Source of the DNA: Candidatus Scatovivens sp.
GTDB taxonomy: Bacteria > Bacillota > Clostridia > TANB77 > CAG-508
Assembly (NCBI GenBank): GCA_045646345.1
Contig: JAZRKN010000015.1
Span: 96,001 to 160,000 of the forward strand
Length of the DNA stretch: 64,000 bases
Direction of reading: 5' to 3'
Shown: piece by piece, positions 29,269-57,622 of the stretch
Layout: each line of letters opens with the position of its first letter
How positions within the stretch are numbered: position 1 is the first letter of the stretch
The notes under the pieces: generated by a model
What the model was told of the DNA's origin: nothing
The model's input: the letters and a program-made list of their open reading frames with translations, nothing else
Databases searched by the model: none
Made by a program: the position numbers and the translations under genes

Positions 29269-29283
29269 AAATATTCCTCTATT

Positions 29284-35144: not shown

Positions 35145-38100
35145 TTACTTAATTATTATATAAGAGAATGTATCTCCAATGTACATATATTCTGTTATAT
35201 CAAATGGTATTTGCGTTGATTCTCCTTTATCATTTGTTTCTTCTTTATAAACAATCTCATCACTTGCATCGTATAATGTGAACACTACTTTGTAAGTTCC
35301 TGATTTCAAATCTTGTTTTAACGTATAGTCTGCATTTAAAGTAATTGAAATTGTATTATCAATTACTGCTGCTTTTATCGTTTGAGTATCAATAGCTGTA
35401 TATTCTTTTTCAAATTGTTTTATTGAATCTAAAAATTCTTGATATTCTTCATCATATACTTGATTTACTTCAACAGGAAGTTCTAGTTCATTAGTTACGT
35501 ATTCTGTCAAATCAACTTTTTCATAATCATTTTGATATGGATTATTCATTGATTCATCATATTCTCTTCTATATAGAGCAACTGTTATATATGGATTATT
35601 TAAACCAGATAAATATTCAATATCAAAGTTAAGCATATTATTACCCACTTCATTCATTTTTCCTGTTGCTGCATCTAATGTATATCCAGTTGCTTTATCT
35701 ATAATAACTTGTTCTACTGGAAGTGTTGAGTTTAATCCATATACATCATTGATTAATTCTAAGCTTACCCAAGTTGTTGCAGAAGCTTCAACTCCATAAT
35801 AAATACCATCAGCAGAACCAAAACTTTCTATCTTAATTTGATATTCACCTGTTGCCAGAGCACTGTTTTCAGTTCCTATTTTTATTGATGATGATGCATT
35901 TGAAACAAGTTCTGCAATTTTTATTCTAGTCGTTCCATCGGCTCTCGGATAATATTTTTCATTATTTAACTCAAAATATGTACCAAGCAAGTTAGCTCCA
36001 TTTACAACCTCATACTCATCTGTAACGTCATTTTTCTTATAAAATGTTAATTTTACACCAAGTTTTTTATCAAAATATCTTGTATCGTAAATTGTAACAG
36101 ATTGTTCACCTTTTTTAACATCATATACTGTATTTACCTTTAATAAAACATCATTTCCTAAAAACACCCTCGATTTACTCAAAGACGCATTTACATCTAT
36201 TGTTGATTCATCATCATAAATACCATAAACAATACTGTCAATTTGATCATCTAATAATCCAAATAATATTTCTTCTCTTCCATCAATCGTTGCTTTCAAG
36301 TACATCCTAAAATGCTGATCTTTAACAATTGCCGTTTGCCCCTCTGGGAGTTCTGGGAATTCAGCATTTTCAAAGTTAGCAATAAATATAAAGTTTTCAT
36401 ATTCATAATCCAGATTATTTTCTGTTATATGATAATTTTCCCTTACACTTTTTTCATTAAATTTTTCATTTGAACTTCCCATTACTTTAAATTCATCTAA
36501 TCTAAATTCAACTCTTCCATACTCATCATCAGTTATATCTAAATAATAGTAAGCAGGATTATTTTTATCCCATCTGTCAATCATTGTAATTGTTGTTCCT
36601 ATTGGGAATGGATATTCAGTTGTTATTACTCTATAAGAATCATCATAGTAATTTCTAATATTTTCTATTTGAGAAAAGTTTTCTTGTGCAAACTCAAAAT
36701 ATGTTGAAAAACTACTCTCTGTTGTAATGTTTGTTACTGTGTTAGCAAATAAATCATAATGTGTACCTGGAGCAATAGCACCGTTGTAACCGGTATCGTC
36801 ATATACTTCTGATAATAAAATTGCATCTATAATTATCCTTGCACTACCACGATTTAACGCATCTCTCCAATAAGATAATCCCATATTAAATTGCACCGTT
36901 CCAAGTTCTTTCGCTTCTGTAATGTTGTTTGAGTGATATAAGAAAAATACGAAAGCTGGTGTTGTTTTTAAGTTTTCAATAATATATTTATTGGTTCCAT
37001 CATAAGAAGTATTATTTGTATGATTTATATCTGTAATAGCATCAGCATAAACATCAGTATTACCACTCATACTCCAACCAGAAGTACTGGTTTTCATCGT
37101 TAATCCAAAATTATTATTAGCAGCTCTTTGATCTGTATTAATATTTGGAATATCATTTTTATTATATAACCCTACTCCATTTACTAATGAAGCGTCTACA
37201 CCTGTAAGTGTTAATACAGCATTCTCATAAGAAATACCTAATAATGACAATTCTTTTGTACCAAATGTTGAGTGTTTAGATGCTGTTAAAATAAATGAAT
37301 AATAAAATACTTCATCATCTGGTCCAGCATACCACATATAATAAACGTCATCTTTTGGTGTTGGAGTTATATAACTTGTATAAGAAGTAGGACTAAAAGA
37401 TGCATAATTTTCTGCATTTAAGATATCATCTTCATCTAATTCAACACCCATTTTTTCATATACAGTATAGAATCCATCTTTAGTAATATCTTGCTCAGGA
37501 TTTCTTTCGTGCAATCCTAATACATATGAACGGTTAAAGTCTCTTTCATTCCAACTTAATGTTCCTCCAGTAGTATAACTTGGATCATACATACCCATGT
37601 AAACGCTATTAGCATCATTTCCCGGTTGTCCTTCTCCACCATCACTACTTCTAAAGATTCCAAAGAAAGTCATTCCTTTAACATCACCATATTTTGATGT
37701 TACTTCTTCGTCATCTGATATATTTAAATTTCTACCAGAATACATATAAATTCTATTATCTGTATTTCTATTTATTGTTGTTGCATTTTGAATTGTTGCA
37801 ATCTTTGTTATTTCTATATCTTCACCAATACCTGTTGTATTTGGTTCGAAAATAGCTCCATTTGAAACATAATATTCAAGATTTCCACGTCCATCATAAA
37901 TCTTTCCGTTTATAACTTGATATGATGTTCCGTTTTCTCCAACAACTGTATCAATAATTTGTGCAGTTGCATATTCTTCATTACCGTCTTCTCCAACCAT
38001 ACTTGAATAATGAGCTAGCAAGTTAGCACCATTTACTAAATATAGTGTTGTATTATTTTTAGATTTCAAATGTGTAATACGGTTTAATGCAAATAATCCT

Positions 38101-41100
38101 TCTGGGTGGGCTGATGTACTATCTGTTGTACCATTTAATAGTATAGAAGCATTATCCATAACTACATTTGTTGCCCTTTGGATAGAAATTCCTCTTTTTG
38201 GTACTTCTCTAGTTCCATAGTTTCTAATATTTATATCACCATTAGTATTAGCACTAGATGCGTTACCAGAACCAAATACACTTTCATAGAAATTAAATGT
38301 ATTAGTATCTGTTGCTGAAGTTTCATATCCTTCACCATCTATATTTATAAGAATTGTTTTTGTAACACTTATTGTATCATAGTTGAATTCTTTTGTAGGG
38401 TCCATTTGCTCACCACCACCAAAGATAGTTCCACCAATATCAACTTTTCCTCTTACAAAGCTTCTTGCAGCTTGATTAGTAGATGCATAATAATCATTTA
38501 TCGCTTCTAAACCTATATTGATTACTGTACTACCGTATATAACTGATGAATTCGCTCCACCATATACATTTTCTCCAATCACAGCACCAGCAATATCTAC
38601 GATTACTAAAGCATCTCCTGTTTCTTTTCCTGTTGCCCCATCTATGTATTTATTTCCTGTTTCAGCAGCATTACCACCACCAAAAGCACTTTTTGCTATA
38701 GTTGTATTTCCATCAACACCTAGGTAAGATGAAATATCAACTAAAGCTGTAACACCGTTTCCAGCAGCATAAGCATTTCCACCTATATTTCCTGATGAAA
38801 TATATAATGAAGTTGCACCTTTTACTGGTCCATTATCTCCTCCACCATAGATGTCATCACCTGTTGAACTATTTCCATAAAAATCAACTTGAGTATTAGC
38901 ACCTACTTCTGCTGTTATACCTTCTCCTGCTCCAAATACTCTGTTTTGAATTACAGAATTGTTACTTATTTCAACGCTACAAGAACCTTTTACTTGTCCT
39001 GGTAGTGTTGCATCAGCACTTCCGTCAGCACCTTTACCACCACCATATACACTATTTTCTATTGTAGAATCTTCAATTTCAACAACAGTTCCATATTCTA
39101 CTTCTCCGTACTCTCCACCACCATATACGTTTTGAGCTTGAGTTTTATTTTGTATAATAACTGTAGTTCCATTTACATTAGCAGCTCTACCACCACCATA
39201 TACCGAACCACCAATATCAGATGTAATTGTTTGATTTGTGTTATCTACAGTATCTGAAATCGTTACCGAAGTGCTCTCCGTAACTTCACCTTGGTTTCCT
39301 CCACCATAGATATTTTTATCTATAATAGTTCCTAAAGCTGAAATAGCAGTTGTTCCATCAACATTTCCTGCATTACCACCACCATAAATAGAAAATGCAC
39401 TAGAATTTTCTACAGCTATACTTGTGTTTCCACCCAAATCAGCTTGGTTTCCTCCACCAAATATATTGTTAGTAATTGTTGATGAATTTAGTATTGAAAT
39501 TACAGACCCTCCAGATACTAAACCTCTATCACCACCACCAAATACATTTCCATTTGTAGCAGGTGTTTCTGCATCCATATTTTCTTTATCACCAATAACA
39601 TTAGATCCATCTATTGTTACAAAAGTAATATTTGATACAGTTGCCGGCTCACCTTTACCACCACCAAATACGTTTTGGGCTTGTGAACCTGCTAACATAT
39701 ATACATCTGTGCTCTTATTGTTTACATTTCCGATTACGGCACCGTTTTCTCCACCACCGTAAATGTTATTTGTTACAATCGAATTTTCTATATTGATATC
39801 TGTTGTAGCAACGCTAGCTTCTTTTCCTCCACCATATAAAGAATCGTTGATGTTTGAATTTGTTACATTAACAATTGTATTTCCAGTTACTTGCCCTTGG
39901 CTTCCACCACCATAAGCAGAACCCGTTATAGTAGAACCGATAACATCCAAAAGTGTATTTCCGTTAATTTGTGCTTCTGTTCCTAATCCTCCACCAAAAG
40001 CATTTCCAATTATTGCATTATTTTTTACATAAACAAATGTAGCTTGTAATTGACCTGATTCATTAGAACCACCATATAAATTACCTACTGTACCACCATT
40101 AACTGTTATTTTTCTTGGCACTTGTGCATTGGTTCCTGCAATTCCTGCTTGATTTCCACCATTAAATGCATTTACAACATTTGCATTACTAAATATGTCT
40201 ACTTGTACACCATTTGAATTAGTTGTTACTGCAGCTCGGTTACCTGATCCAAACACATTGTCAACTGTAGTTGGATACGTTTTTCCAATTTCAACAAGAA
40301 TTTTTCCACTTATATCTCCATTTACGTTACAACCACCAAATACAGATATTCCTGGATATGTTCCACCATCTACAATTACAGTTGTATCACCATTCGTAGT
40401 AGCAGGATCATTTTCTGCTCCCTTACCACCACCATATATATTTCCTGTAATTAAAATTGTATTCGCTGGCGATACTGAATCCGATACTGTTATTTTAGAA
40501 TCTCCTGAAACAGTTCCAGCTTCGCTTCCTCCATAAATATTTCCATTTAAAACAATAGTCCCATTTGAGTCTGTTATATTTATTGTAGCATCACCATTAA
40601 CAGAAGTTGAGTTTCCTAAACCACCACCGAAAATAACATCTTCTGAGAAATCTCCTGTAGCACCTATTGTTCCACCATTTATATAAATATATGTATCTTG
40701 TGTTATATCTCCATCTTGATTAGATCCACCATATATTGCACCATTTATTGTTCCTGCATATGTTTTAACAGTTGAAGAACCTACAATATCACTTTGATTT
40801 GAACCACCATAAATATTTTTATTTACTTTTCCACCATGCATTTCAATTGTTACAGCGGTTACTTCTTCTTGTTCTTCATCATCCGGCTTTTCTATTTCAA
40901 CAGCTTTTAAAAATCTAAATGATGTAGCATTAGAAGTACTTGTAGTTGTTCCTGTTATTGTTGATCCATTTATTCTGAGATATCTATTAGAACCATTTCT
41001 TACAAAATAAAATCTTATTCCGTTATTAACTACTGATGCAGTAAAAGTTCTCGAATTTCCTGATAATGTAAGGTTATTTCTATCATTATTTAAATATCTC

Positions 41101-44100
41101 TGTTGTCCAATATTATAAAAAGAATACTCATTCCCATTTTTGGTTACTCTCCATAAGTTATTATTAGTTGGCATTTGAGTATTAGATAAATATGATCCTG
41201 TTAACGTACCATTATTTACATTGAATATTCTAGAAGAATTTGGCGTAGTTCCATTAGCAATAATATATACTTCTCCAGACACAATATTATTTGTATGATC
41301 TTCAAAAGTACACACTGGCTCTCCATTATCATCGTCATCATCATTTGCAGATGAATTTACAACCCCATAATTTCCACCACCATATACAGAATTGTTTATA
41401 GTTGCATTTCCATCTATAATTATATGTGAAGATAAAACTCTTCCTGCAATTCCCATAAGTCGTGGATCATCATTTCCGTTTCCAGCACCTAATACGCATC
41501 CTGCTTCTGTTCCATATAGCGTAGCAACCCCTTGAGCATTTCGATCAGCATTATTGGTTAGTGTATCTTCTGCTCCAATTACAGCGTTTCCTCCAATATA
41601 TAGTTTTGTACTTCCATTTAGAGTACCGTTATCACTTGTTGTCGAAGCAACACCATTAGACCCTCCATTGACGCTATATAATATCGTTCCATCTGTAACT
41701 TGTATTACTCTATTTCCATAAGTTGGAGATCTACCCGCACCACCAACAATATTTACTATAGTTCCACCTTTTATGTATATAAATGATCTAGCATCATCAC
41801 CATCATACGATGCAAGTCCACCAATTACGTTGCAAATTAATCCACCTTCAACAGTTAAAATTCTATCACCATTGTCATGAGCCCCAGTAGATCCATGACC
41901 ACCTACATATATTCCAGAATATGGTTTATTATCATCTGTATCTTTAAAACAATCAAGACCAATTCTTCCACTTTTTACTCTCATATCAAATATAGGAACC
42001 CCAGCATATAAGGTATCAAGGGTTGCAGCACCTGTTCTTGAAGAGAATTTTGTATATATATTTAAATCATCATTCTTATTTCTAACTCTATCAAAATCAT
42101 TTCCAATAATAGCTGTTGCTGCTATTTTATGCCCAGTAAACGATCCAGCTCTCGCTACTTGTACATTCAAATATTTTCCAGTTTCTATAACTAATCTATA
42201 TTCTGCATTAGCATTACCAGAAGCACCTCCTTGGATTTGTGTAAATGTTGCTTCTGTTTCATCTGTATTATCAGGCATCATTCCTCTACCAATTCTAAAA
42301 TTAAATGCATTAGCTTTTACCCAAGTTCCTAAATCTGCCGTAGCACTTTCGTGATCAGTATTCCATCCCATACCAGAATTATTATTGTAATTTGCTGGTC
42401 CATCAACTGTTAAAAACGCTAATTGAGCATCTTGTTTTAAAGTAATTGTAGAACTAACTTGAAATGTTGCATTTTCTCTATAATCTTGGCCACCATATAT
42501 ACTTGTAATTGTATAAGCCGAATTAGCAGTTTCATATAGGTTTGATAAAGTTCCGTTCTTAAGAACAATTATATTTAACTCTCTATCAGATGCTGTATCT
42601 GTTTCTTCATTGTATGCTGCAGCTAATCTAGAATTAATTCCAACCCAGTTATTTACTGGAGTTGTCATACTTCCATCATTTGTTTGCGCACCTGCAGTTG
42701 TATCAACAAATATAACATTTGCATCTTGCCAATCCGCATATAAGTTAATTGTTACTTTTCTATCTGCTCCTACGTTTGTCGATACAGTTTGAACATATGT
42801 CTTTGCATTCGTTGTAATTGTATGGGTTGCATCAGTATCTGCTGAAAGCCAACCATTAAATCCTGCTCCTCCTGGTCTATCCATATATGGATTATCTATT
42901 AATTCTACTGATACTTTACCTCCAGAAATTGGAACTGCGTGAGTATAAGTCATTAATGTTTGTCTTTCTCCATTACTCGTTGCTGTTGGCTGTATCGTTG
43001 ATATGTATCCAATTAATAATCTTTCTGTTCCTGTAACCTTAAAACCATAAGTATTAATTCCTGAAAAAGTTGCTACAGTACCTGTTCCAGTATATGCCAA
43101 ATCGATATCTAATGTATATTTTTTATAAGTATTTTGTGTCCAAGAATTCCAATTGTTTCCAGTTACAGTCACTATTTGAGTAGTAGCATTATACGTAATC
43201 GTTATATCGTTATTAGTTGTATCATTAGCAGTTGCTGTTGCATTAAATCTATCTGGAACTGGAGCTTTAAATTGCATAGTCCAAGGTTTTGTTGTGTCAA
43301 CATATTGATCATTTCCAAAAGTTGCTGCTATATCTAGATTTACAATTCTATTTCCTCCAGCTGAACCTGCATCACTTCTTGTCCAAGAAACAGTACTTGT
43401 TTCAATTTGATTCATTTCTGTTTTATTTGTGTTATAACTATAGTAATTTACAGTTACTTCTGCCATATCATTCTCTGTATATGGTGTTTTTCTTCCGTCA
43501 AAGTCTTCTGTATAATTCAATCCCATATAATAATTATAATCATTATCATAATTATTAACTAAAACTTTATTTGGAGTAATTTCATCTTCTTTTATAACTG
43601 CATAACGTGAAAACTCATTTGTTACACATTCAACTGTATCTATTGTTTTATTTGATACGTTTATTTTTTCAAATAAAATTTCATCTTCACTTTCATTAAT
43701 GTGTAATACTTCAATAGATTTCCCTATTAAGTTATCTTTGAATTTTTCTACTGAAGTTATTGCAACATTTACAGTTTGATAATAATCTTTTGGTTGATAT
43801 TCCAATTCACCATTTAGAATTTTTATATCATATGCAGCTAAAACTGTCGTATCTTTTAATTCTTCAACATCTGCTTTTAACTCTTCAATTTCATTAATAT
43901 CTTCTGCTTTTACATTTAAACCGTATCCAACAGGTACATATCCAGTTACTACAATTTTTGCTTCAGCTGATTCTGAAACTAATTCTTGATTGTATAGTTT
44001 TACACCATTAATCTCTATTGTTTGATATTCTGCCAAAACGTTTAAATCTTCTTTTTCAAGTTGTTCTTCAGTTAAATAAACTTTATCTCCTGGTAAATAT

Positions 44101-44957
44101 TCTTTTAAAACCTTTTCTTCTACAACTTGATTTTCATCTATTATATTTTCTAAATTACTTGTTGTATTTTCAACAACTTTATTTTCTACGCCTTCATTTA
44201 TCGTAGTGTTTGTAACTTCATTTTTTATTTCTTCTACTGTTGTATTAGAAATTGTGTTGTTGTTTTCCACAACTGTGTTTGTTGTGACTTTATTTTCAAC
44301 TATATTTTCCACAATTTTGTTTTCGGTTGTAGAATTTGTGTTTTCTTCTACAATTATATTTTCAACAATAGTATTTGTATTATCTTCTATCGTATCAACT
44401 TCATTTGATATCTCTGCTTTATCTTCAACAATTGTATTTTCAATTGTATTTGTTATTTCTTCTTTCTCTTCTTTTTCTTGAGTTTCATTTACAATTGTAT
44501 TTGTATTATTTAATTCATTATTAGGAGTTTGATTCACATCATTATCATCAATTGTATTTGTAGGAGTAGAATCGTCATTAACTACAACATTTTCGTTGCT
44601 TGTATTACTTTCATCTTTTTGTTTTTTTAGTTCTTCTAAATCAACAATCTCATCTGAATATATATAATATTTTTTTGCTATATATCCATTTACATTTTCA
44701 GGTAATTCAATATATGAATTATTATTTTCATCAGTTAAAAGCTCCAAATCTGCATTCATTGAATTCTCTGTTCCATATTCAATAAATTTTACATTTGTTG
44801 TAATAACTTCTTCTGACTTTGTTAAAAATTCAAATTTGTGCATTACTAATAAACAGATAGCTATTAAAACCACCGTTATTACAAGTTTTGCTCGATTTGT
44901 TATTTTTTTCTTACTTTTTCTAGACATCCTAGTACTCCCATTCTTAATATAATACAC
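35145..44957 (-). CDS. Giant (about 3270 aa) surface protein with Gly-rich beta-helix-like repeats
   Basis: N-terminal basic patch plus TM (likely start MSRK at 44927), N/E/T-rich stalk, dozens of (N/S)(V/I)(Y/F)GGG repeats, beta-rich C-terminus, no LPXTG seen. Confidence 0.85.
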   Translation of the reverse strand: MYYIKNGSTRMSRKSKKKITNRAKLVITVVLIAICLLVMHKFEFLTKSEEVITTNVKFIEYGTENSMNADLELLTDENNNSYIELPENVNGYIAKKYYIYSDEIVDLEELKKQKDESNTSNENVVVNDDSTPTNTIDDNDVNQTPNNELNNTNTIVNETQEKEEKEEITNTIENTIVEDKAEISNEVDTIEDNTNTIVENIIVEENTNSTTENKIVENIVENKVTTNTVVENNNTISNTTVEEIKNEVTNTTINEGVENKVVENTTSNLENIIDENQVVEEKVLKEYLPGDKVYLTEEQLEKEDLNVLAEYQTIEINGVKLYNQELVSESAEAKIVVTGYVPVGYGLNVKAEDINEIEELKADVEELKDTTVLAAYDIKILNGELEYQPKDYYQTVNVAITSVEKFKDNLIGKSIEVLHINESEDEILFEKINVSNKTIDTVECVTNEFSRYAVIKEDEITPNKVLVNNYDNDYNYYMGLNYTEDFDGRKTPYTENDMAEVTVNYYSYNTNKTEMNQIETSTVSWTRSDAGSAGGNRIVNLDIAATFGNDQYVDTTKPWTMQFKAPVPDRFNATATANDTTNNDITITYNATTQIVTVTGNNWNSWTQNTYKKYTLDIDLAYTGTGTVATFSGINTYGFKVTGTERLLIGYISTIQPTATSNGERQTLMTYTHAVPISGGKVSVELIDNPYMDRPGGAGFNGWLSADTDATHTITTNAKTYVQTVSTNVGADRKVTINLYADWQDANVIFVDTTAGAQTNDGSMTTPVNNWVGINSRLAAAYNEETDTASDRELNIIVLKNGTLSNLYETANSAYTITSIYGGQDYRENATFQVSSTITLKQDAQLAFLTVDGPANYNNNSGMGWNTDHESATADLGTWVKANAFNFRIGRGMMPDNTDETEATFTQIQGGASGNANAEYRLVIETGKYLNVQVARAGSFTGHKIAATAIIGNDFDRVRNKNDDLNIYTKFSSRTGAATLDTLYAGVPIFDMRVKSGRIGLDCFKDTDDNKPYSGIYVGGHGSTGAHDNGDRILTVEGGLICNVIGGLASYDGDDARSFIYIKGGTIVNIVGGAGRSPTYGNRVIQVTDGTILYSVNGGSNGVASTTSDNGTLNGSTKLYIGGNAVIGAEDTLTNNADRNAQGVATLYGTEAGCVLGAGNGNDDPRLMGIAGRVLSSHIIIDGNATINNSVYGGGNYGVVNSSANDDDDDNGEPVCTFEDHTNNIVSGEVYIIANGTTPNSSRIFNVNNGTLTGSYLSNTQMPTNNNLWRVTKNGNEYSFYNIGQQRYLNNDRNNLTLSGNSRTFTASVVNNGIRFYFVRNGSNRYLRINGSTITGTTTSTSNATSFRFLKAVEIEKPDDEEQEEVTAVTIEMHGGKVNKNIYGGSNQSDIVGSSTVKTYAGTINGAIYGGSNQDGDITQDTYIYINGGTIGATGDFSEDVIFGGGLGNSTSVNGDATINITDSNGTIVLNGNIYGGSEAGTVSGDSKITVSDSVSPANTILITGNIYGGGKGAENDPATTNGDTTVIVDGGTYPGISVFGGCNVNGDISGKILVEIGKTYPTTVDNVFGSGNRAAVTTNSNGVQVDIFSNANVVNAFNGGNQAGIAGTNAQVPRKITVNGGTVGNLYGGSNESGQLQATFVYVKNNAIIGNAFGGGLGTEAQINGNTLLDVIGSTITGSAYGGGSQGQVTGNTIVNVTNSNINDSLYGGGKEASVATTDINIENSIVTNNIYGGGENGAVIGNVNNKSTDVYMLAGSQAQNVFGGGKGEPATVSNITFVTIDGSNVIGDKENMDAETPATNGNVFGGGDRGLVSGGSVISILNSSTITNNIFGGGNQADLGGNTSIAVENSSAFSIYGGGNAGNVDGTTAISALGTIIDKNIYGGGNQGEVTESTSVTISDTVDNTNQTITSDIGGSVYGGGRAANVNGTTVIIQNKTQAQNVYGGGEYGEVEYGTVVEIEDSTIENSVYGGGKGADGSADATLPGQVKGSCSVEISNNSVIQNRVFGAGEGITAEVGANTQVDFYGNSSTGDDIYGGGDNGPVKGATSLYISSGNIGGNAYAAGNGVTALVDISSYLGVDGNTTIAKSAFGGGNAAETGNKYIDGATGKETGDALVIVDIAGAVIGENVYGGANSSVIYGSTVINIGLEAINDYYASTNQAARSFVRGKVDIGGTIFGGGEQMDPTKEFNYDTISVTKTILINIDGEGYETSATDTNTFNFYESVFGSGNASSANTNGDINIRNYGTREVPKRGISIQRATNVVMDNASILLNGTTDSTSAHPEGLFALNRITHLKSKNNTTLYLVNGANLLAHYSSMVGEDGNEEYATAQIIDTVVGENGTSYQVINGKIYDGRGNLEYYVSNGAIFEPNTTGIGEDIEITKIATIQNATTINRNTDNRIYMYSGRNLNISDDEEVTSKYGDVKGMTFFGIFRSSDGGEGQPGNDANSVYMGMYDPSYTTGGTLSWNERDFNRSYVLGLHERNPEQDITKDGFYTVYEKMGVELDEDDILNAENYASFSPTSYTSYITPTPKDDVYYMWYAGPDDEVFYYSFILTASKHSTFGTKELSLLGISYENAVLTLTGVDASLVNGVGLYNKNDIPNINTDQRAANNNFGLTMKTSTSGWSMSGNTDVYADAITDINHTNNTSYDGTNKYIIENLKTTPAFVFFLYHSNNITEAKELGTVQFNMGLSYWRDALNRGSARIIIDAILLSEVYDDTGYNGAIAPGTHYDLFANTVTNITTESSFSTYFEFAQENFSQIENIRNYYDDSYRVITTEYPFPIGTTITMIDRWDKNNPAYYYLDITDDEYGRVEFRLDEFKVMGSSNEKFNEKSVRENYHITENNLDYEYENFIFIANFENAEFPELPEGQTAIVKDQHFRMYLKATIDGREEILFGLLDDQIDSIVYGIYDDESTIDVNASLSKSRVFLGNDVLLKVNTVYDVKKGEQSVTIYDTRYFDKKLGVKLTFYKKNDVTDEYEVVNGANLLGTYFELNNEKYYPRADGTTRIKIAELVSNASSSIKIGTENSALATGEYQIKIESFGSADGIYYGVEASATTWVSLELINDVYGLNSTLPVEQVIIDKATGYTLDAATGKMNEVGNNMLNFDIEYLSGLNNPYITVALYRREYDESMNNPYQNDYEKVDLTEYVTNELELPVEVNQVYDEEYQEFLDSIKQFEKEYTAIDTQTIKAAVIDNTISITLNADYTLKQDLKSGTYKVVFTLYDASDEIVYKEETNDKGESTQIPFDITEYMYIGDTFSYIIIK

Positions 44958-45128
44958 TCATATTCTATCATAGAACCCTCTAAAATTAAAGTATTTTTGC
45001 ATTTTGTAACATAAATGAAAAATAACTCAAAATATGCTATTTTGAGCCATTTTATGTCAATTTTTTATTTGTTTTTTTTAACCTTTTTTACATTATTTTA
45101 CCATCTTTTTCTATATTATTTCATAAGC

Positions 45129-45162
45129 AAAAAAAGCGATAGAAAATTCTATCGCTTTTTTT
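45129..45162 (-). terminator. Intrinsic terminator after the candidate major fibre subunit
   Basis: AAAAAAAGCGATAGAA-AA-TTCTATCGCTTTTTTT. Confidence 0.85.
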
Positions 45163-45169
45163 ATTTATT

Positions 45170-46201: not shown

Positions 46202-46215
46202 AATATCCTCCTTCA

Positions 46216-47205: not shown

Positions 47206-47233
47206 TCATTCAAATAATTATGGAGTTTTAATT

Positions 47234-48181: not shown

Positions 48182-48201
48182 AATATAAAAAAATAATAAA
48201 C

Positions 48202-48236
48202 AAAAAGAAGTAGATTTTAAATCTACTTCTTTTTTT
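48202..48236. terminator. Bidirectional intrinsic terminator
   Basis: AAAAAGAAGTAGATTT-T-AAATCTACTTCTTTTT between convergent genes. Confidence 0.85.
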
Positions 48237-48253
48237 ACTTTCTAATATTCTTA

Positions 48254-49063
48254 TTATGGATTTTCTTGACTTTGAACAGCTCTTATCTTTACTTCTATCT
48301 CTATACCATATTCTCCTGGATGGTTTTGATCAAAATCATAAGCTTTATTTCCCCAATATGTATCAATCTCATCTGCAGCATCTATTACAGTTTGATCATC
48401 ACTATCTACTTCATAATCCCAATTAACTTTAAACTTTAATTCAACATCCTCACTTCCAACTTCCATTGGTACTGGTGTTCCATTATATAAAGTATCATCT
48501 ATATATATTTCTATTTTAAATGGATAAGTTTTTAATAATTCAAATAATTTTTCTGAACTATATATTTCTTGAACACCTCCATTATCGTAGGTTGTCTCTC
48601 CAGCTATATATTCATCTTCAAAAATTCTCATTGATAAAATATCACAAGAAAGTTCTGCTTCTGTTTCTCCATTATTTTTTGCATTAATTAATTGAACTTT
48701 TTCTGTCATACCTGGAAAAATTTCTCCAACCTCAAAAAGAAAATTTTCTGTTTGGTCTCCACTTGATAACTCAAAACTCCAGTTTTTTACGTGCATTGAG
48801 ATATCCATTGATACAGTTGATATATATATAAACCACGCATAAGTATTAGCAATCAATGTTAAAAGTAAAATTAAAACTGTTCTTATTTTTAATCCTGAAT
48901 TCAACATTGAGCTATATCTTTTTCGTTTTTTCTTTTTTGAACTATTTAGAGTTTTTTCTGGCTTGTTTTCATCTTCATTTTCAATTGTTTCTTCTATTGC
49001 ACTATATAAAATTTCATTTTCGATATCTTCATATAGTATAGACTCTAAATCTTGAAAATCCAT
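48254..49063 (-). CDS. SipW-class signal peptide protein with long acidic/basic N-terminal extension
   Basis: LLTLIANTYAWF after about 60 cytoplasmic residues; IFPG, VNWDYE..D..DTYWG; GAAGGAG RBS before ATG at 49063. Confidence 0.75.
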   Translation of the reverse strand: MDFQDLESILYEDIENEILYSAIEETIENEDENKPEKTLNSSKKKKRKRYSSMLNSGLKIRTVLILLLTLIANTYAWFIYISTVSMDISMHVKNWSFELSSGDQTENFLFEVGEIFPGMTEKVQLINAKNNGETEAELSCDILSMRIFEDEYIAGETTYDNGGVQEIYSSEKLFELLKTYPFKIEIYIDDTLYNGTPVPMEVGSEDVELKFKVNWDYEVDSDDQTVIDAADEIDTYWGNKAYDFDQNHPGEYGIEIEVKIRAVQSQENP

Positions 49064-49099
49064 AATAGCTCCTTCCATTTATAATATTAGAATTTATTT

Positions 49100-49771
49100 T
49101 TATTCTTCATCATCTTCGTCGTCTTCATCATCTTCGTCATCTTCGTCGTCTTCATCATCTTCGTCATCTTCGTCGTCTTCTTCATCTTCTTCATCTTCGT
49201 CTTCTTCGTCTTCTTCATCTTCTTCTAGTTCTTCATTTTCATCTCTACCAGATTTTAATTGCAAGAAGAATAATACCGCAAAAGGAATAAAGAATACAAC
49301 ATAAAATGCTGTCATATTATTCATCAATTTTGTCAATAAACTTATCAAAACGCATTTATATATTACTTTTCCATAAATTTGATCACCTGTAATAGTAGGA
49401 TCTTCAGCAGGATTTGCTATACCTTTTGTATGGAAAACTCTTCCTCCAATAGATTCTTCTATTTCAATAATTTGGTGTGTTACAACTCTCCCAGCAAAAG
49501 AACCATGTTCGCCTAAATAAGTTATATCATCTCCTACTTTTAGAGTATTTGGATCTTGTTCTTTTACAATTAAAACATCTCCAACTTGATATTTTGGAAT
49601 CATACTTCCTGTTGCAACATTAAATACTCTAAAACCACCAATTGTTTTTTCATTATTTGAAAATCTTTGCAATGCAAGAACTGCAATTATTATTATTAAA
49701 AAAATCGCACATAAATATTTAATAATTGAAATTATCATACCTAGTGGTTTTAAATTTAACTTTTTCTTCAT
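49100..49771 (-). CDS. sipW: Signal peptidase I, SipW-type, with poly-Asp/Glu tail
   Basis: VATGSMIP, VTHQI, TKGIAN..ED; C-terminal run of about 45 D/E residues. Confidence 0.85.
   Translation of the reverse strand: MKKKLNLKPLGMIISIIKYLCAIFLIIIIAVLALQRFSNNEKTIGGFRVFNVATGSMIPKYQVGDVLIVKEQDPNTLKVGDDITYLGEHGSFAGRVVTHQIIEIEESIGGRVFHTKGIANPAEDPTITGDQIYGKVIYKCVLISLLTKLMNNMTAFYVVFFIPFAVLFFLQLKSGRDENEELEEDEEDEEDEDEEDEEDDEDDEDDEDDEDDEDDEDDEDDEE
49103..49225 (-). repeat. Imperfect 9-bp tandem repeat encoding (EDD)n
   Basis: TCTTCGTCG/TCTTCATCA/TCTTCGTCA units in tandem. Confidence 0.85.
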
Positions 49772-49816
49772 TATACTTCCTTTAAAATTTATTTAGGATT
49801 ATGGCCCTATCACCAT

Positions 49817-50935: not shown

Positions 50936-50954
50936 TGTTTCCTCCTTAGAATTA

Positions 50955-52505
50955 CTATCCTAATTTCTTTAGTCTCAAAACGTATTCAATACATTCTTTC
51001 ATTTTGCCTTTTCCAAATGTTTTATCTAAGAATGTAACAAATCCATCAATTTCATCTTTAATATAAGCAATATTTAATTGTTCGAATTTTCTTAAAATCT
51101 TTTTAGCTATGAAGTAATCTATTCCTTCAACTTCATCTCCACCACAAGCAACATACGCTGAAACGAATTTTCCTAAGTGACTAACAATACGGTTACCAAA
51201 TGCAACTCTAAAATGTTGTATTACGTAATCATCCATTTCATTAATCTTTTTCCAATTATCTTCAGAAACTTCATGTTCTGCTCTAGCTTGCATAAATAAT
51301 TTATCTAAATAACTGAAGTTAATATCCATTGGTGGTGTATCTTCAGCTTCAAATACTTGTCCTTTATCGTTAATATCTATAGGCATCGCTCTATCGTAAA
51401 CCTTATCAGTTACCATAAATGTAGAGTCGTCATTGTTGATTGTTCCGATATACCAAGTATTTGCTGGTATCTTAATTCTACCATTTGTTATATGTTTTGG
51501 GTCATTTTCCCAAGGACTAGCTACAACCTCAATAATCCACTCATCTCTATTTGGCATCTCTAGAATAGATAACATTTCAGCGAAATAGTATTCAACACGA
51601 GCAAGGTTCATCTCGTCTAGGATTACTGTATATACATCATCTGTATATGTAGCTGTATATAAACATTCTAATAATTGTGTCTCATTAAATTTCTTTGTGA
51701 ACTCGTTGAAATATCCAAACAACTCTGTTCTATCTCTCCAAGACGGTTGTACAGATACAACGCAAGAGTCATGTTTTAAGAATTTTCCCCAAGCATAAGC
51801 AAGAGATGTTTTACCTGTACCAGAGATACCTTGTAGAATAACAAGTTTTGTTGATGCAAGACCAGCTATAAATATACGAATTAATGGTAATGCATAATAT
51901 AAATGTAATCTTGATGCAGCAAATTGTCTAAATGTTTCACAAAGCTCTTCAAGTGTAAAATCATTATTATAATTTTGAACTTTATATTTAGCAAACTTTT
52001 TATCAACAATTGAAAGTCTTGTAAATCTTACACCATCACCTGGATCTAATTCATCTTCTTTTTTCTTATCTCCATCAGCAGCTTTTGTTTTATCTACTGG
52101 AAGTTTTGAAGATTCATTTGGACTTAATCCTAATTGTGAAACTTTCATAGCAAGAATTTCTTCTCTTTCTTTTGTCATTGTTTCAACTCTTTTATTTAAG
52201 TCAGCAACTTCTTTTAACATAGTTTCTTGTTCTACTACTGTTTTTCTAAATCTAATATACTTTCTTAATATTAAATATACTAAAACAACTGTTAATATAA
52301 GTATTGCAGCAACTGCTAATACTGCTATAGCCACAAGTATCCATTCTTGTACAGAAAAATCATTCTTATATTCTTTAATTAAATGTATGTAAGCTGGAAT
52401 ATCAAATAATTGTCCAATTCCAGTTACTAATCCTGTTAATATTGTTTTTAATCCAGTGAAAAACGCGTCTAAAAATTCATATAAGAATCTTACATATGTA
52501 TCCAT
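50955..52505 (-). CDS. Membrane-anchored McrB-like AAA+ NTPase
   Basis: Walker A GISGTGKT, VQPSW.D..ELFGYFN, Walker B ILDEMNLARVEYY, GTINNDDST, DKVYDRA; N-terminal hydrophobic helices plus coiled coil. Confidence 0.85.
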   Translation of the reverse strand: MDTYVRFLYEFLDAFFTGLKTILTGLVTGIGQLFDIPAYIHLIKEYKNDFSVQEWILVAIAVLAVAAILILTVVLVYLILRKYIRFRKTVVEQETMLKEVADLNKRVETMTKEREEILAMKVSQLGLSPNESSKLPVDKTKAADGDKKKEDELDPGDGVRFTRLSIVDKKFAKYKVQNYNNDFTLEELCETFRQFAASRLHLYYALPLIRIFIAGLASTKLVILQGISGTGKTSLAYAWGKFLKHDSCVVSVQPSWRDRTELFGYFNEFTKKFNETQLLECLYTATYTDDVYTVILDEMNLARVEYYFAEMLSILEMPNRDEWIIEVVASPWENDPKHITNGRIKIPANTWYIGTINNDDSTFMVTDKVYDRAMPIDINDKGQVFEAEDTPPMDINFSYLDKLFMQARAEHEVSEDNWKKINEMDDYVIQHFRVAFGNRIVSHLGKFVSAYVACGGDEVEGIDYFIAKKILRKFEQLNIAYIKDEIDGFVTFLDKTFGKGKMKECIEYVLRLKKLG

Positions 52506-52519
52506 TTTTTACCCTTCCT

Positions 52520-53515: not shown

Positions 53516-53532
53516 TAAACACTCTCCCTATT

Positions 53533-54591
53533 TTATATGTATGATACATCCACAACTGGTGGCGTGTTATTCATATTTGGATATGTATAATTTTCAGATG
53601 CATTTACTTTATAAAATTTAATTACCTTACTTTCTTCTGCATTCATCTTAAATTTAATCTGTTTAACATATTCATATCCCGGGTCAGTTCCTATAATTTC
53701 ATATTCTAAATCATCATCTTTATCAGCAGCTATATAAACACCTGCTGTTGTATCTAGTCTAAGAACACTAGAATCAAAAGCAAGTGTTATAATCATTGAA
53801 TGGCATTTTTCTTTCTCTGCTTCTGACAATCCCAAATAATCATTTATTGTTATTGAAGTTCCTGCAGGAAAAATTCCAACAGCTTCTTCAGTTATATAAT
53901 AATCTAATGTATTTGTTACAACAACTTCACAGTATGGGTCATATTCTTTATCTTCTATTTTATAACTCATACCTAAAGTTCCTATTTTAATATTGAATTC
54001 ACCAATCAATTCTGCAACATATGGTGAAGTCGATGTTGCTGTTATTTTTACATATATATAATCATTATTTTGTAAATTTGATGTTGTCTTTGGTTTTACA
54101 GAAAATTCAAAACTATCTTGGTTATTTGAAGATTGAAAAATCGTTCTTGAAAGAACATCTCCTTGATTTAAATTTTCTATACCTGTTATATAAAAATCTA
54201 TAATATCATCAGAATATTTAGTCCCATCACTTTTATAAACATCATATTCATATTCAATATTATAATTAATATCTACTTTAGAAACTTCACTAACATTTTT
54301 TCTACTATTCATGTTTACAGTAACTCTATATTCTTCAACCCCAGACCAGTTGTCAGACTCAAAATGCGCTATATTTGAAGACAATTTATCACTATTAAAA
54401 TAAAACTCTTTAGAAGTTAAATAATAGTTTCTAATTGATTTATAAACATATCTAGACAAAGTAACAGAGCCAGGCACTATTACTTTTACTAGCATATATA
54501 TTATTATGAATAATAGTATAAGCAAAAATAGCATTTTCTTTATACCACCATTTTTTCTCCTGATTCTTGTTTTAACTTTTCTTTCTTTCAA
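53533..54591 (-). CDS. SipW-class signal peptide protein
   Basis: Basic N-terminus, hydrophobic helix, GSVTLSRYVY, then FYFNSDKL; TTG start. Confidence 0.65.
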   Translation of the reverse strand: MKERKVKTRIRRKNGGIKKMLFLLILLFIIIYMLVKVIVPGSVTLSRYVYKSIRNYYLTSKEFYFNSDKLSSNIAHFESDNWSGVEEYRVTVNMNSRKNVSEVSKVDINYNIEYEYDVYKSDGTKYSDDIIDFYITGIENLNQGDVLSRTIFQSSNNQDSFEFSVKPKTTSNLQNNDYIYVKITATSTSPYVAELIGEFNIKIGTLGMSYKIEDKEYDPYCEVVVTNTLDYYITEEAVGIFPAGTSITINDYLGLSEAEKEKCHSMIITLAFDSSVLRLDTTAGVYIAADKDDDLEYEIIGTDPGYEYVKQIKFKMNAEESKVIKFYKVNASENYTYPNMNNTPPVVDVSYI

Positions 54592-54609
54592 TTTAACCTC
54601 ACATCTTTA

Positions 54610-55287
54610 TTAAGTATTAGGAACATCGATTCTTTGTTCAGAATCAACAGTTATTTCTATACATTCAATTACATTTTGATATTGAACTGAATTATACCTT
54701 GCTGGTAATGTTACTTCTAATATATATGTATTAGTTTCAGGTGTTGTATAATAAAATTCATCAGAATCAGTTATACCTTCAGCTTTTTTATCAGCAGATT
54801 GACTAGCAAACACTAAATGCTTAAATATAGTATTATCTTCATCTAAATACATATTTTGATTTTGAACAGTTTCTATTTCTAATATGTTTGTAAGATTTTC
54901 AACATCCATTCCTTGATTTTTATACATTTTGTATTCTAAAGGTAAATTTGTTGTTGTTCTTATTTTCAAATCATAAAGCATATCAGTTTCTGTTGTTACA
55001 TTTTCTCCCGCATCATCTACATAGTAGTTTGAAACAGTAAATGCTATTCTTCTTGTTTCACCTGGAATCATCTCTTCTATTGAAATAACATTTGTTAAGT
55101 ACTCATCCTCTAGAGTATAAAAAGCAACATCTATATCAGCTGTAGAGCTTGCTTCTGACTCATATAATGAATAAGAACTAAATAAAATTCTATGTAACAT
55201 ACACACAATTAATATAGCAAGTAGAAATTTAATTCTACGTCTTGCTCTTATTGCTTTCCTTTCTCTTAAGTATTTTCCTCTAATCAT
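54610..55287 (-). CDS. SipW-class signal peptide protein
   Basis: FSSYSLYESEASSTADIDVA, MIPGE..FTVSN motif. Confidence 0.7.
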   Translation of the reverse strand: MIRGKYLRERKAIRARRRIKFLLAILIVCMLHRILFSSYSLYESEASSTADIDVAFYTLEDEYLTNVISIEEMIPGETRRIAFTVSNYYVDDAGENVTTETDMLYDLKIRTTTNLPLEYKMYKNQGMDVENLTNILEIETVQNQNMYLDEDNTIFKHLVFASQSADKKAEGITDSDEFYYTTPETNTYILEVTLPARYNSVQYQNVIECIEITVDSEQRIDVPNT

Positions 55288-55305
55288 ATAATCCTCTTTC
55301 GAAAT

Positions 55306-55791
55306 TTATTTTTCTTGCTTTGGTTTTTTAAATAAAAGCCATATTGCAATAATTGTTATTAATATTGCAATTATTACTTGTGGAGATTTTAGCACTTCAA
55401 ACCATATAGCCACATTCGCTATTATAAAAACTACTTTTCCTACTATATCTTTTTGTGTTATAGGATCGTCTTTTGAAGTATTAGCATCTCCTTTTGTTAT
55501 TATTTCATCTTCATTTATTTCTATAACTCTATGAGTTACAAAATCTTCTTTATATCTATAAGTTATAATGTCATTTTCTTTTACATCATCTGTAAGTTTT
55601 ACTATAACAATATCATTTATCTTTATTGTATCTTCCATACTTCCTGTTATAACTTGAAATATTGTATAACCACAAAAGTTAATATAATCATAATTAAATA
55701 TTTTTAGTTGTGCATAACAGTATGAAGCAATAATAAAAATAATCACTAATATAATCGTTATAAAATCTATCTTTTTTAGAAATTCTTTCAT
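55306..55791 (-). CDS. sipW: Signal peptidase I, SipW-type
   Basis: VITGSMEDTI, VTHRV, TKGDAN..DD. Confidence 0.9.
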   Translation of the reverse strand: MKEFLKKIDFITIILVIIFIIASYCYAQLKIFNYDYINFCGYTIFQVITGSMEDTIKINDIVIVKLTDDVKENDIITYRYKEDFVTHRVIEINEDEIITKGDANTSKDDPITQKDIVGKVVFIIANVAIWFEVLKSPQVIIAILITIIAIWLLFKKPKQEK

Positions 55792-55811
55792 TCATACCCC
55801 ATTTAGTGAAT

Positions 55812-56480
55812 TTATTCACCAGTCCATTGAATTACATCTACTTTTATTGGAAGCTTAATTAAATTATTTGCTATAGACCCAATTTTTGAATCTATATCAT
55901 TATTTGCTTCGTTATCTTCCCATGTAACTTTAATTTCCAATTCATCAATTCTATCTGTTTCTCTTTCAGACATAATATCGTCTAATTCTTTAATTTTACT
56001 TATAACAATATTTCCTTCATCATCTCTTGGCAATTCAATATCTACACCATTTTCTTTTATGCCTGTTATTTTCAAATTTATTCTATCAGCTAAATTTTCT
56101 CCTGTAACCCCGACAGATTCTAGCATTTCTGCTATTTTCGAATCATCAATGGTTATTGAATATTTCACTGATACTTGTGTTCCTGTTGGATCTACTTTTA
56201 ATTTAAAATAACCACTCATTCCAGGTGCAACTTTGGGAGGTTTTACATTGGGTGCTGACTCCCAGTCCCATGTAAAATCATCAATTTCAAAAACACCTAT
56301 TTCTCCATTTTCATCTGGTACAGTTATATCTTTATCATTAATTTTTATAGACCAATTTGCTGCCGTTTCATTTATCACACCAGACGCTTTGTTGGTATAT
56401 TTTGAATATGTTGAACTAATTATTAACGCTAGTAAAATTAAGATTGCTATAAGAATAACTATTCTTATTTTTTTATTCAT
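55812..56480 (-). CDS. SipW-class signal peptide protein
   Basis: ISSTYSKYTN, AANWSIKIND, KVAPGMSG, VTWED..D..IG. Confidence 0.78.
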   Translation of the reverse strand: MNKKIRIVILIAILILLALIISSTYSKYTNKASGVINETAANWSIKINDKDITVPDENGEIGVFEIDDFTWDWESAPNVKPPKVAPGMSGYFKLKVDPTGTQVSVKYSITIDDSKIAEMLESVGVTGENLADRINLKITGIKENGVDIELPRDDEGNIVISKIKELDDIMSERETDRIDELEIKVTWEDNEANNDIDSKIGSIANNLIKLPIKVDVIQWTGE

Positions 56481-56485
56481 TATTT

Positions 56486-57622
56486 TTACTCACCTTTTTT
56501 ATTTTTTTCAGCTTCTAGTTTTTTCTTTTTAGCTTCTATTAAAGCTTTCTTTTCTTCTGGTGTCATTGATTTTAATTTTGCTTCAATTAGAGCTCTTTTT
56601 TCTTCTTCTGTCATCGATTTCATTTTTGCTTCAATAGCAGCTTTTTTCTTTTGTTCTTCTGTTTGTTCTTGTTTTGGTTCTTCCTTAGTTTCAATTTTCA
56701 CTTCAGTAACTTCTGTTTTTACTTCAGCTTTTATTTCAACTTTTTCTGGAACTACCGAAACAACTTCTTCTTTTTTCTCTTCAACCTTCACTTCAGTTTC
56801 ATTTTTTTCTTCAACTTCAATTTTTACTTCCGTTACTGGTTCTTCTTTTTCTACTTGAACCACAACAGCTTTATTTTCTTCTATCTCAACTTTTACAGGT
56901 TCTGTTACAATTTCTACTTTTGGTTCTTCTGTTTTCTTTTGTTCTTCTACAATCTCTTCAACCATTTCTTTTATTGTTTCATCTTTTTTTACATTTTCTA
57001 CTTTATCAGATTTTGTAGATGTTGATTTTTTCTTTTTCTTCTTTTTCTTTTTCTTTTTCTTTTCAGCTTCTTTTGTTTCACGAACTTCTATTACAACATA
57101 ATTTAGAGTATATATAAAAGCAACCAAAGAAGGAAATACACCTAAGAATAAGAATCCCCATTTAGATTCTAATATGCTCAACACTTTACCTACATTAGGA
57201 ATTACTGTTGCATTTTCTGCATTTCCTATGTAGTATGAACTTGAAAATCTATAATCTCCTTCAACTGTATAAGTAAACTCTGTATCTGTTACTCTTTCAG
57301 CTTTAATAACCTTGGCATAGTTTATAGTAGTCACTCCATAAGTTGTTCTATAAAAGAAGATTACATCTCCTTCTTCAACTCGAGCTAAACTTCCTTTTGA
57401 CACAATAACTAAATCTCCAACCGTATAATCAGGTTCTAGATCTTCATCAATGATTGGTATAAGAGTACTTTTACCAAATTCTGTTACCTTATATTCATTA
57501 AAAGATAGCAAACAAATTGTGACAAATATTATCAACAAAATGTATGCAATTATTACGAAATTTTTAATAAATTCCCAAACTTTTTTCAAACTTTCCATCT
57601 CATCAGTCCTTTTAATCCACAT
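56486..57622 (-). CDS. Degenerate SipW-like protein with poly-Lys and Glu-rich cytoplasmic tail
   Basis: SipW scaffold (LEP.Y.VGDLVIV, EGDVIFF, IPNVGKVL) but DED in place of SGSM and no HR; K12 run; C-terminal MTxEEKxALIEAK repeats. Confidence 0.65.
   Translation of the reverse strand: MWIKRTDEMESLKKVWEFIKNFVIIAYILLIIFVTICLLSFNEYKVTEFGKSTLIPIIDEDLEPDYTVGDLVIVSKGSLARVEEGDVIFFYRTTYGVTTINYAKVIKAERVTDTEFTYTVEGDYRFSSSYYIGNAENATVIPNVGKVLSILESKWGFLFLGVFPSLVAFIYTLNYVVIEVRETKEAEKKKKKKKKKKKKSTSTKSDKVENVKKDETIKEMVEEIVEEQKKTEEPKVEIVTEPVKVEIEENKAVVVQVEKEEPVTEVKIEVEEKNETEVKVEEKKEEVVSVVPEKVEIKAEVKTEVTEVKIETKEEPKQEQTEEQKKKAAIEAKMKSMTEEEKRALIEAKLKSMTPEEKKALIEAKKKKLEAEKNKKGE

Follow-up and report, generated by a model that had tools for sequence, protein, structure and literature searches.

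A CoCoPALM-type locus in Candidatus Scatovivens sp. combining SipW peptidases, candidate donor-strand subunits and a McrB-family GTPase

Why should a GTPase of the McrB restriction family be encoded in the middle of a cluster of SipW-like signal peptidases and exported subunits? The question is raised by a conserved cluster of about 29 kb in Candidatus Scatovivens sp., contained in the window analysed here (the whole stretch of 64,000 nucleotides, contig JAZRKN010000015.1, positions 96,001 to 160,000). A preliminary description of positions 35145-57622 had recognised three SipW-like genes, a trio of genes (EAL-like, McrB-like and DUF2357) and a protein of 3270 amino acids (aa), and had proposed an undescribed multi-subunit fibre system with an embedded motor. 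All these genes were found in place. The system is not undescribed, since the combination of motor and peptidase was named CoCoPALM by Bell et al. (eLife 2024, PMC11090510). The reading favoured here, at somewhat better than even confidence, is a donor-strand fibre with GTP-driven control of its assembly by a McrB/McrC-type motor, and not restriction. The fibre itself is considered quite probable; the job of the motor, which we infer, is the weak step of the reading.

The core of the locus is a run of ten genes on the minus strand (57622-48254) in the order SipW1, A, SipW2, B, C, EAL-like, McrB, DUF2357, SipW3 and D, with intergenic gaps of 5-45 bp; the gaps flanking and within the cytoplasmic trio measure 17, 14, 19 and 45 bp, in agreement with the 14-45 bp reported at first. 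Subunit E follows on the plus strand; beyond it the minus strand resumes with F and G (46914-45170) and then the gene for the 3270-aa protein. The system reaches left beyond the earlier bounds to 32629, taking in a 537-aa protein and a fourth SipW gene, and probably right to 61732. A single operon is contradicted by the opposite strand of E and by hairpins in the gaps. Because these hairpins fall within intergenic gaps, the locus is likely divided into four or more transcription units; the argument is their position and not their number, which is not above chance (4 observed, 2.4 +/- 1.8 expected). An invertible switch around E was considered and rejected, no convincing flanking inverted repeat being found and its opposite orientation being kept in most relatives.

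The McrB scan of GTDB contigs yielded 131 confirmed relatives; neighbourhoods were counted for the best 80, within 10 kb of McrB where the contigs allow. SipW and a subunit gene were identified near the motor in 78 of the 80 loci, both exceptions being contigs of 3.3 and 4.6 kb. DUF2357 was present in 77 loci, SipW3 and D in 71 each, C and the EAL-like gene in 64 each, F in 56, the 3270-aa giant in 55, G and B in 53 each and a 1334-aa acidic protein in 38. Gene order is mostly kept in records labelled Clostridia, Bacilli and Mollicutes, and its conservation is far beyond chance. The closest named McrB relative (96%) is labelled Candidatus Scatovivens, other relatives are labelled Blautia and Ruminococcus (P0273, P0263), and the family search comprised at least 8000 protein clusters.

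The inheritance of the motor was followed in a sample of the order comprising 151 genomes, in which relatives are not independent, so that no P-value is given. The motor was identified in 20 genomes. All of these also have subunit G, which otherwise occurs in a single genome, as a fragment with two stops; the distribution is patchy, and within one genus 9 of the 27 genomes have both motor and G. The 537-aa gene was present in 18 genomes, each motor-positive, and is duplicated in G339 and G405, both of which also have two motors. The EAL-like gene was identified in 19 genomes, 18 with the motor and the remaining one a contig-edge fragment, and the C-terminal domain of the acidic protein in 36, 18 of these with the motor. 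Among 300 Clostridia the motor was present in 12; ten of the 11 other loci were read, eight of them with SipW and G-family genes. The core F-G-SipW-McrB-DUF2357 is kept in seven Clostridia genomes of other families (L082-L088), the McrB of L087 being interrupted by a stop. A phylum-wide sample of 301 genomes contained, besides the source, two weak GTPase-domain matches (E about 1e-41), neither with G. McrB, single-copy in this genome, is the slowest-changing gene (mean pairwise identity 66%, other locus genes 33-52%), and the pairwise identities of the subunits follow those of McrB (rho 0.64-0.78). The locus is one conserved multi-subunit system in which the McrB/DUF2357/EAL-like trio is included; to this extent the initial proposal, and its expectation of conserved neighbourhoods, is borne out.

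The motor is formed by the GTPase and the DUF2357 protein, and both initial labels are upheld: the sole PDB match of the GTPase profile is E. coli McrB (E 2e-6), and the Pfam match of its partner is given in Table 1. Walker A (GISGTGKT) is kept in 78 of 82 rows, Walker B and KVYDRA in 81 each. The N-N-D motif was identified in 81 rows (the other gapped); the next residue is D in 80 of them and A in one. NxD is also present in all 32 rows of the McrB tree. At its N-terminus McrB has a hydrophobic segment (residues 49-86) and a heptad-like helix (about 85-125, read by eye), and no modified-DNA specificity domain was found on it. The DUF2357 protein has charged helix-like segments and a charged tail, much longer in relatives of 552-724 aa. 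No nuclease was identified on it by Pfam nor as a conserved PD-(D/E)xK motif in the family profile; the pattern occurred in none of 80 rows in a scan covering only the tails after a literal NVNF, and a PDB profile search with the family gave chance rows only. With McrBC of E. coli K-12 the locus shares an AAA+ GTPase with Walker A/B and signature motif and a DUF2357 activator encoded next door, whereas it has a membrane anchor in place of the DNA-reading domain, an NxD motif and no recognisable PD-(D/E)xK nuclease.

CoCoPALM was named by Bell et al. in one paragraph that defers its analysis (PMC11090510). In that paragraph the GTPases are of NxD type, with E or D as the usual next residue, and carry a domain of membrane and coiled-coil helices that resembles FtsB; genes of the signal-peptidase family are associated with them, and a coiled coil is as a rule also part of the McrC homolog. 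The FtsB homology is by HHpred (E 1.2), the supplement contains two CoCoPALM rows (FtsB-like domain; SipA-like peptidase), and CoCoPALMs form a CoCoNuT-like clade. The protein that represents them in the paper, RHC33375.1, did not occur among the cluster members listed in the present look-up. The present locus is assigned as an elaborate CoCoPALM-type variant from three features read in its sequence: the NxD motif, the transmembrane segment with heptad-like helix, and the linkage to signal peptidases; a McrC partner is also common to both. The published account of CoCoPALM, in the paragraph concerned, names no substrates, mechanism, pseudo-peptidase, EAL-like protein, 537-aa partner or giant adhesin. 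In the literature search, with subscription papers mostly outside its scope, CoCoPALM occurred among relevant matches only in the eLife paper and its preprint; queries on SipW/McrB/pilus, on McrB/signal peptidase/TasA/Clostridia (from 2023) and on RF39/TANB77/SipW returned no paper on this system.

The four SipW-fold genes are of two kinds. SipW2, SipW3 and SipW4 pass the TIGR02228 cut-off of 51.85 bits. SipW1 does not; its catalytic Ser is replaced by Asp and its His by Ala, and its family keeps His in 1 and Ser in 7 of 64 rows, with most often Asp or Lys and Gly or Ala at these positions. The three SipW-like genes first described are thus all present, one of them without catalytic Ser and His, and a fourth, intact one lies outside the earlier bounds. 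By analogy, SipW1 is likely a SipA-like assembly factor. SipA of Streptococcus pyogenes has a peptidase fold without catalytic residues, with Asp and Gly at the catalytic positions, and is essential for pilus assembly (PMC4049620); common to both is a catalytically empty signal-peptidase fold in a pilus locus. SipA, however, serves sortase-built pili and is of Ser/Lys origin, whereas SipW1 is of Ser/His SipW origin and stands beside active paralogs. SipW genes come after the giant in relatives too, and an intact SipW immediately precedes McrB in six distant loci.

Three further SipW-like genes were identified elsewhere in the genome. Two SipW-like genes outside the locus are found in G000:C9 (about 21700-31600) near a copy of the C-terminal domain of the acidic protein, and this group is possibly a satellite cluster served by the machinery of the locus. 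In L055 (5680-6810) SipW2 and subunit B are fused into 376 aa, the peptidase and its presumed substrate sharing one frame.

The six exported subunits end their signal peptides in TYAWF (D and G), TYSKY (A and E), SYSLY (B) and TLSRY (C), as first noticed, and the related membrane-anchored subunit is F, a paralog of G without cleavage motif. Profile comparisons (hhalign) join A-E, A-D, B-E, B-C and F-G at 92-99.9%. At the presumed cleavage site of the six families (368 rows, minus 5 gapped) a small residue is found at -1 in 360 of 363 rows and F or Y at +2 in 356, with alternating hydrophobic positions downstream of the aromatic; the donor strand of TasA likewise begins with a +2 Phe, F29 (PMC9674648). 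The signal-peptide family TIGR04088 was matched weakly by 28 of 54 relatives of G at E<=0.1 (best 2.4e-4) and by G of the window at 17 bits (cut-off 19); the other subunits were unmatched, yet have the -1/+2 pattern. No family above cut-off was identified for the subunits or the giant in Pfam, NCBIfam and PDB sequence searches, and PF12389, the TasA family, is not among the 25 families shown for 52 relatives of D.

Structure models were made for two of the seven subunits, mature A and G. Both are predicted by AlphaFold as confident beta-sandwiches, with a predicted local distance difference test (pLDDT) score of 87.6 for A, where residues 1-19 have no secondary structure, and 91.3 for G, where residues 8-17 form a lower-confidence strand. 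Foldseek ranks the TasA fibre fourth for both; its top match for A is CanA, and AbpA takes third place for G. By VIA-align against 48,161 chains, G matches the TasA fibre best (Z 4.9, tied); among the Foldseek candidates the top six for G are donor-strand pilins (archaeal thread, four FimA, TasA fibre; Z 4.6-5.1). The best match of A is the PapG pilin domain (Z 6.4), the TasA fibre giving the longest alignment, from residue 1. Against the TasA structure 8aur, A has Z 5.5 and a root-mean-square deviation (rmsd) of 4.3 over 151 residues, and G has Z 4.9-5.0 and rmsd 4.0-4.2 over 134-140, both tying with other Ig-like and pilin folds.

From this converging weak evidence the subunits are likely to work as donor-strand pilins, on the strength of models and motifs. 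The TasA-type label first given draws on the SipW-type signal peptides and on beta-sandwich models resembling donor-strand pilins, with TasA among the best though tied at Z 4.9-5.5, and is dropped as a family match to PF12389; the likeness to TasA is a weak, remote resemblance. The G family is kept and multiplied in distant loci, for which reason G is likely the major pilin of the shaft. F lacks a cleavage motif and stays beside G in distant loci, for which reason it is likely a base anchor or initiator.

Several known systems are similar in part. The tapA-sipW-tasA operon of B. subtilis (PMC9674648) and sipW-bsaABC of C. perfringens (PMC11580942) have in common with this locus a dedicated SipW, exported beta-sandwich subunits (predicted here for A and G), a +2 aromatic in the mature chain and, as predicted for this locus, polymerisation without a pilin sortase. 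The present locus differs in having six cleaved paralogs beside an uncleaved one. It also has four genes of SipW fold, includes a GTPase module and encodes the giant of 3270 aa; PF12389 is not matched, and the structural likeness reaches only Z 5.0-5.5. Sortase-dependent pili have LPxTG pilins and a linked sortase, and here neither was identified: no locus protein has LPxTG, and the nine sortase matches of the genome all lie outside the window, as the first inspection had indicated. Archaeal AbpA bundling pili, CanA cannulae and the archaeal thread recur weakly among the top folds of A and G. For the archaeal bundling pilus (ABP) operon the passages available of PMC9245690 report no dedicated signal peptidase nearby and describe no motor.

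Table 1. Features of the locus, with window coordinates, strand and the evidence for each.
Feature	Coordinates	Strand	Evidence
SipW4 signal peptidase	32629-33240	-	TIGR02228 100.3 bits; Ser and His present
537-aa protein, no membrane segment	33254-34867	-	found only with the motor, 18/151 genomes
Exported repeat protein, 3270 aa, putative adhesin	35145-44957	-	N-terminal hydrophobic segment, repeats; no LPxTG
Terminator of F-G transcript (likely)	45129-45162		hairpin after subunit G
Subunit G, 348 aa, TYA/WF, likely major pilin	45170-46216	-	AlphaFold model, fold matches, co-occurrence with motor
Subunit F, membrane segment, no cleavage motif	46216-46914	-	hhalign to G 93%, C-terminal 40 columns
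Subunit E, TYS/KY	47234-48181	+	hhalign to A 99.9%
Bidirectional terminator (likely)	48202-48234		hairpin between convergent D and E
Subunit D, TYA/WF, likely minor pilin	48254-49078	-	hhalign to A 96%, 178 columns; last in ten-gene run
SipW3 signal peptidase, acidic tail	49100-49771	-	TIGR02228 76.9 bits; Ser and His 74/74
McrC N-terminal (DUF2357) partner, 372 aa	49817-50935	-	Pfam DUF2357 E 5.5e-12, above cut-off
McrB-family AAA+ GTPase, NxD type	50955-52505	-	PDB profile match, motifs, N-terminal membrane segment
Cytoplasmic EAL-like protein, 331 aa	52520-53515	-	hhalign to 8 EAL domains; SipW fusions in Bacilli loci
Subunit C, 352 aa, TLS/RY, likely minor pilin	53533-54591	-	hhalign to B 92.5%, 79 columns
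Subunit B, 225 aa, SYS/LY, likely minor pilin	54610-55287	-	hhalign to E 96.9%, 147 columns
SipW2 signal peptidase	55306-55791	-	TIGR02228 74.9 bits; Ser 61/61, His 60/61
Subunit A, 222 aa, TYS/KY	55812-56480	-	AlphaFold beta-sandwich with free N-terminal arm; paralog of E
SipW1 pseudo-peptidase	56486-57622	-	TIGR02228 28.4 bits; two membrane segments, long charged tail
Acidic protein, 1334 aa, conserved C-terminal domain	57728-61732	+	38/80 loci; linked, not exclusive

The third member of the trio, the EAL-like protein, was unmatched by Pfam in the window, and PF00563 was matched by 3 of 53 relatives at E<=1 (best 0.012). Alignment by hhalign to eight EAL domains gave E 0.003 over 129 columns and a score of 28.9, against at most 17.4 in 30 block shuffles. 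The EAL-like label denotes a weak, remote resemblance and not a family match. At the positions aligned with the catalytic EAL motifs E-I-T-E and DDFG the window protein reads EIEY and TNDD, and these positions are not conserved. An Atlas lead at 0.89 had EAL in 13% of its members; hhalign of the family to five locus-linked EAL proteins gave a probability of 0.5% (E 0.12), and a PDB profile search with the family gave chance rows only. The protein is likely a decayed, non-catalytic EAL fold, judging from these alignments.

Real but degenerate EAL genes (Pfam EAL) were identified upstream of F in five of five distant loci tested (L082-L086), and in L119 the EAL-like family occupies this same position, a positional bridge between the two. 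The locus EAL is the only EAL of the genome in G150, G199 and G014, and a cyclic di-GMP (c-di-GMP) riboswitch of class I precedes the locus EAL gene in two of seven loci scanned. The source genome encodes a single receiver-GGDEF protein, whose motif reads GGDDF, and Pfam recognises no EAL domain in it as a whole. In five Bacilli-type loci (L037, L038, L042, L044 and L046) a SipW-EAL-like fusion lies directly upstream of McrB; these fusions are the strongest pointer to an action of the cytoplasmic module on the peptidase. Locus-linked EAL domains fused to HD (HD_5) were also observed, in L083 (4154-5530) and L086 (1647-3104).

The 3270-aa giant has one N-terminal hydrophobic segment, 26 glycine-rich repeats of (V/I)YGGG type at residues 1191-2227 and a conserved C-terminal region, with full-length relatives of 2572-2905 aa whose signal regions end in SKA or SRA, without a +2 aromatic. 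From its size and export it is a putative adhesin. A pilin-like acceptor at its C-terminus was rejected, there being no likeness to any subunit profile (below 1% probability) and all Atlas rows lying below 0.9. The giant is found in two frames in L109, L111, L112, L113 and L118 (for example 2572 + 137 aa and 1174 + 1691 aa), these being either real splits or assembly errors. The 537-aa protein is likely a cytoplasmic adaptor; its family had no PDB match at E<=0.1, and the window protein had no Pfam match. In the acidic protein, the C-terminal domain comprises about 130 conserved residues without a Pfam family and has three further copies in the genome (G000 C9 and C1); the long acidic N-terminus is found in the closest relatives (about 940-1520 aa), most others having about 300 aa.

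In the favoured reading, a donor-strand fibre assembled under GTP-driven control, the three SipW peptidases with intact Ser and His would release the six exported subunits, and after cleavage the N-terminal strand of each would insert into the next subunit, giving a sortase-independent surface fibre. G would form the shaft, the uncleaved F the membrane base or initiator and A-E the minor subunits, with the giant as adhesin, and the catalytically dead SipW1 may bind subunits as a SipA-like helper. McrB would form a hexamer under the membrane, stimulated by its DUF2357 partner as in the biochemistry of McrBC, and this ring, together with the 537-aa and EAL-like proteins, would decide when or where subunits reach SipW and polymerise, a control of subunit hand-over that was likely tied ancestrally to c-di-GMP. 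A bolder form of this, tentative and rather doubtful at present, is that a distinct Gram-positive class of donor-strand pilus has taken over a restriction motor to energise its assembly, the GTPase ring actively feeding, extending or withdrawing a fibre that bears an adhesin of 350 kDa, with c-di-GMP as the control in some lineages.

Several observations weigh against this reading. On the side of the fibre, PF12389 matches no subunit, nor anything in the genome at E<=10; Foldseek gives A and G no match at E<=0.001, and the fold Z scores of 4.6-6.4 are under the trust level of the tool (about 8). On the side of the motor, donor-strand fibres need none, because CanA assembles in vitro unaided by any chaperone or catalyst (PMC9245690), and the GTPase matches the candidate defence model PDC-M26A of PADLOC (E 9.6e-38). 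The EAL resemblance is weak, one of five control profiles, an unrelated profile of the locus, having scored 31.3 over 41 columns, above the EAL-like score; and no riboswitch was identified in the window at the Rfam gathering score. Finally, a sister clade of membrane-anchored McrB (L089 and L090) has neither SipW nor G-family genes nearby and adjoins large membrane or exported proteins, and subunit G was not found in the genomes of these two loci nor in that of a third, unread motor. Both loci (L089, G222:C8, 8495-20000; L090, G172:C80, 8145-17092) contain an NNDD McrB with DUF2357, duplicated in L090. They were set apart as a branch, the only use made of it, by a McrB tree that is quick and unfinished, with long branches and a midpoint root; they possibly form a fibre-less subtype.

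This sister clade is what gives weight to a different job for the motor, as a general membrane machine exporting or quality-checking very large surface proteins, of which the fibre would be one client and the giant perhaps the main one. L089 adjoins proteins of 730 and at least 1554 aa and L090 one of 1341 aa, all membrane or exported, without SipW or pilin, and giants flank 55 of the 80 loci as well as L082, L083 and L088. Such a machine is nevertheless unlikely here. In L084 and L085 the motor is accompanied by F, G and SipW, and no giant occurs in the 19-20 kb read; in the order sample the distribution of the motor follows that of subunit G exactly; and the fusions of SipW to the EAL-like domain direct attention to the peptidase. 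McrB is believed to be a DNA translocase (PMC11090510), and its near-invariant catalytic motifs, membrane-tethered ring and patchy distribution would also suit a motor that still moves DNA, the fibre catching DNA or a partner cell and the McrB ring pulling DNA across the membrane for uptake or transfer. This is considered quite unlikely: as far as matched, neither the locus nor the 80 neighbourhoods contain a recurring gene recognisable as a channel, relaxase, integrase or competence gene, and the locus is flanked by the housekeeping genes YqfD, YbeY and ClpB with a G+C of 28.6% against 27.7% for the genome. An origin as a mobile element is unsupported by the same flanks and composition.

The restriction-system origin of the motor, the PADLOC match and the CoCoNuT-like clade to which CoCoPALM belongs are the grounds for an anti-phage module guarding the fibre, in which phage binding or injection would trigger the GTPase and shut down fibre or cell. 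In the locus, however, no nuclease or HEPN-type effector was recognised, PADLOC did not recognise the DUF2357 protein and matched the EAL-like protein no better than E 0.096, and the motor is single-copy, in a fixed gene order and the slowest to change, so that this reading is judged highly unlikely. That the trio is a mere passenger of an otherwise ordinary SipW/TasA-like cluster, inserted from elsewhere, is hardly credible and already largely refuted. SipW clusters that lack a motor do exist, as in C. perfringens, and this genome has its other SipW-like genes, but exact co-occurrence, an order kept across distant groups, gene fusion and subunit identities that track those of McrB all speak against it.

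CoCoPALM has so far been a name without parts list or mechanism, and the locus supplies candidate substrates (seven paralogous subunits), active and dead peptidases, two dedicated cytoplasmic partners and a giant. The present analysis adds four points: motor and subunit co-occur exactly in the order sample, SipW1 is catalytically dead, the 537-aa protein is a dedicated partner, and a sister clade lacks pilins. If the favoured reading holds, a defence enzyme has been turned into a machine for a surface structure; if the recruitment reading were true, this would be an NTPase-driven member of a self-assembling fibre type, common in uncultured gut Clostridia and Bacilli. The relatives labelled Blautia and Ruminococcus indicate that a cultured host for genetics may exist.

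A second cluster, of 13 genes, is found in the same window (7137-21300, minus strand), 11 kb from the CoCoPALM locus, and contains a weak match to the T2SSE ATPase. Its products have 321, 226, 286, 703, 690, 283, 247, 144, 167, 160, 172, 181 and 875 aa, an order and sizes that resemble the TANB77 Tad pilus cluster in Table 1 of PMC11680825. From this layout, TANB77 is the probable order of the source genome. That cluster is of Tad type and was identified in 122 of 129 species, with no mention of SipW or TasA in the sections available of the paper, whereas the CoCoPALM locus is separate and patchy (20 of 151 genomes). Identity of the CoCoPALM locus with the published TANB77 pilus is ruled out, the latter being Tad-type, and the cell likely has two appendage systems; if so, these mostly uncultured gut lineages would gain a second appendage beside the Tad pilus.

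Two minor observations concern other genes of the window. ClpB (61842-64000, minus strand) is cut at the window end, its frame appears open upstream of the listed open reading frame (ORF), and it is otherwise ordinary. At 22492-24076 (plus strand) DUF6020 was identified in two successive ORFs (profile positions 160-317 and 370-585), perhaps one split gene.

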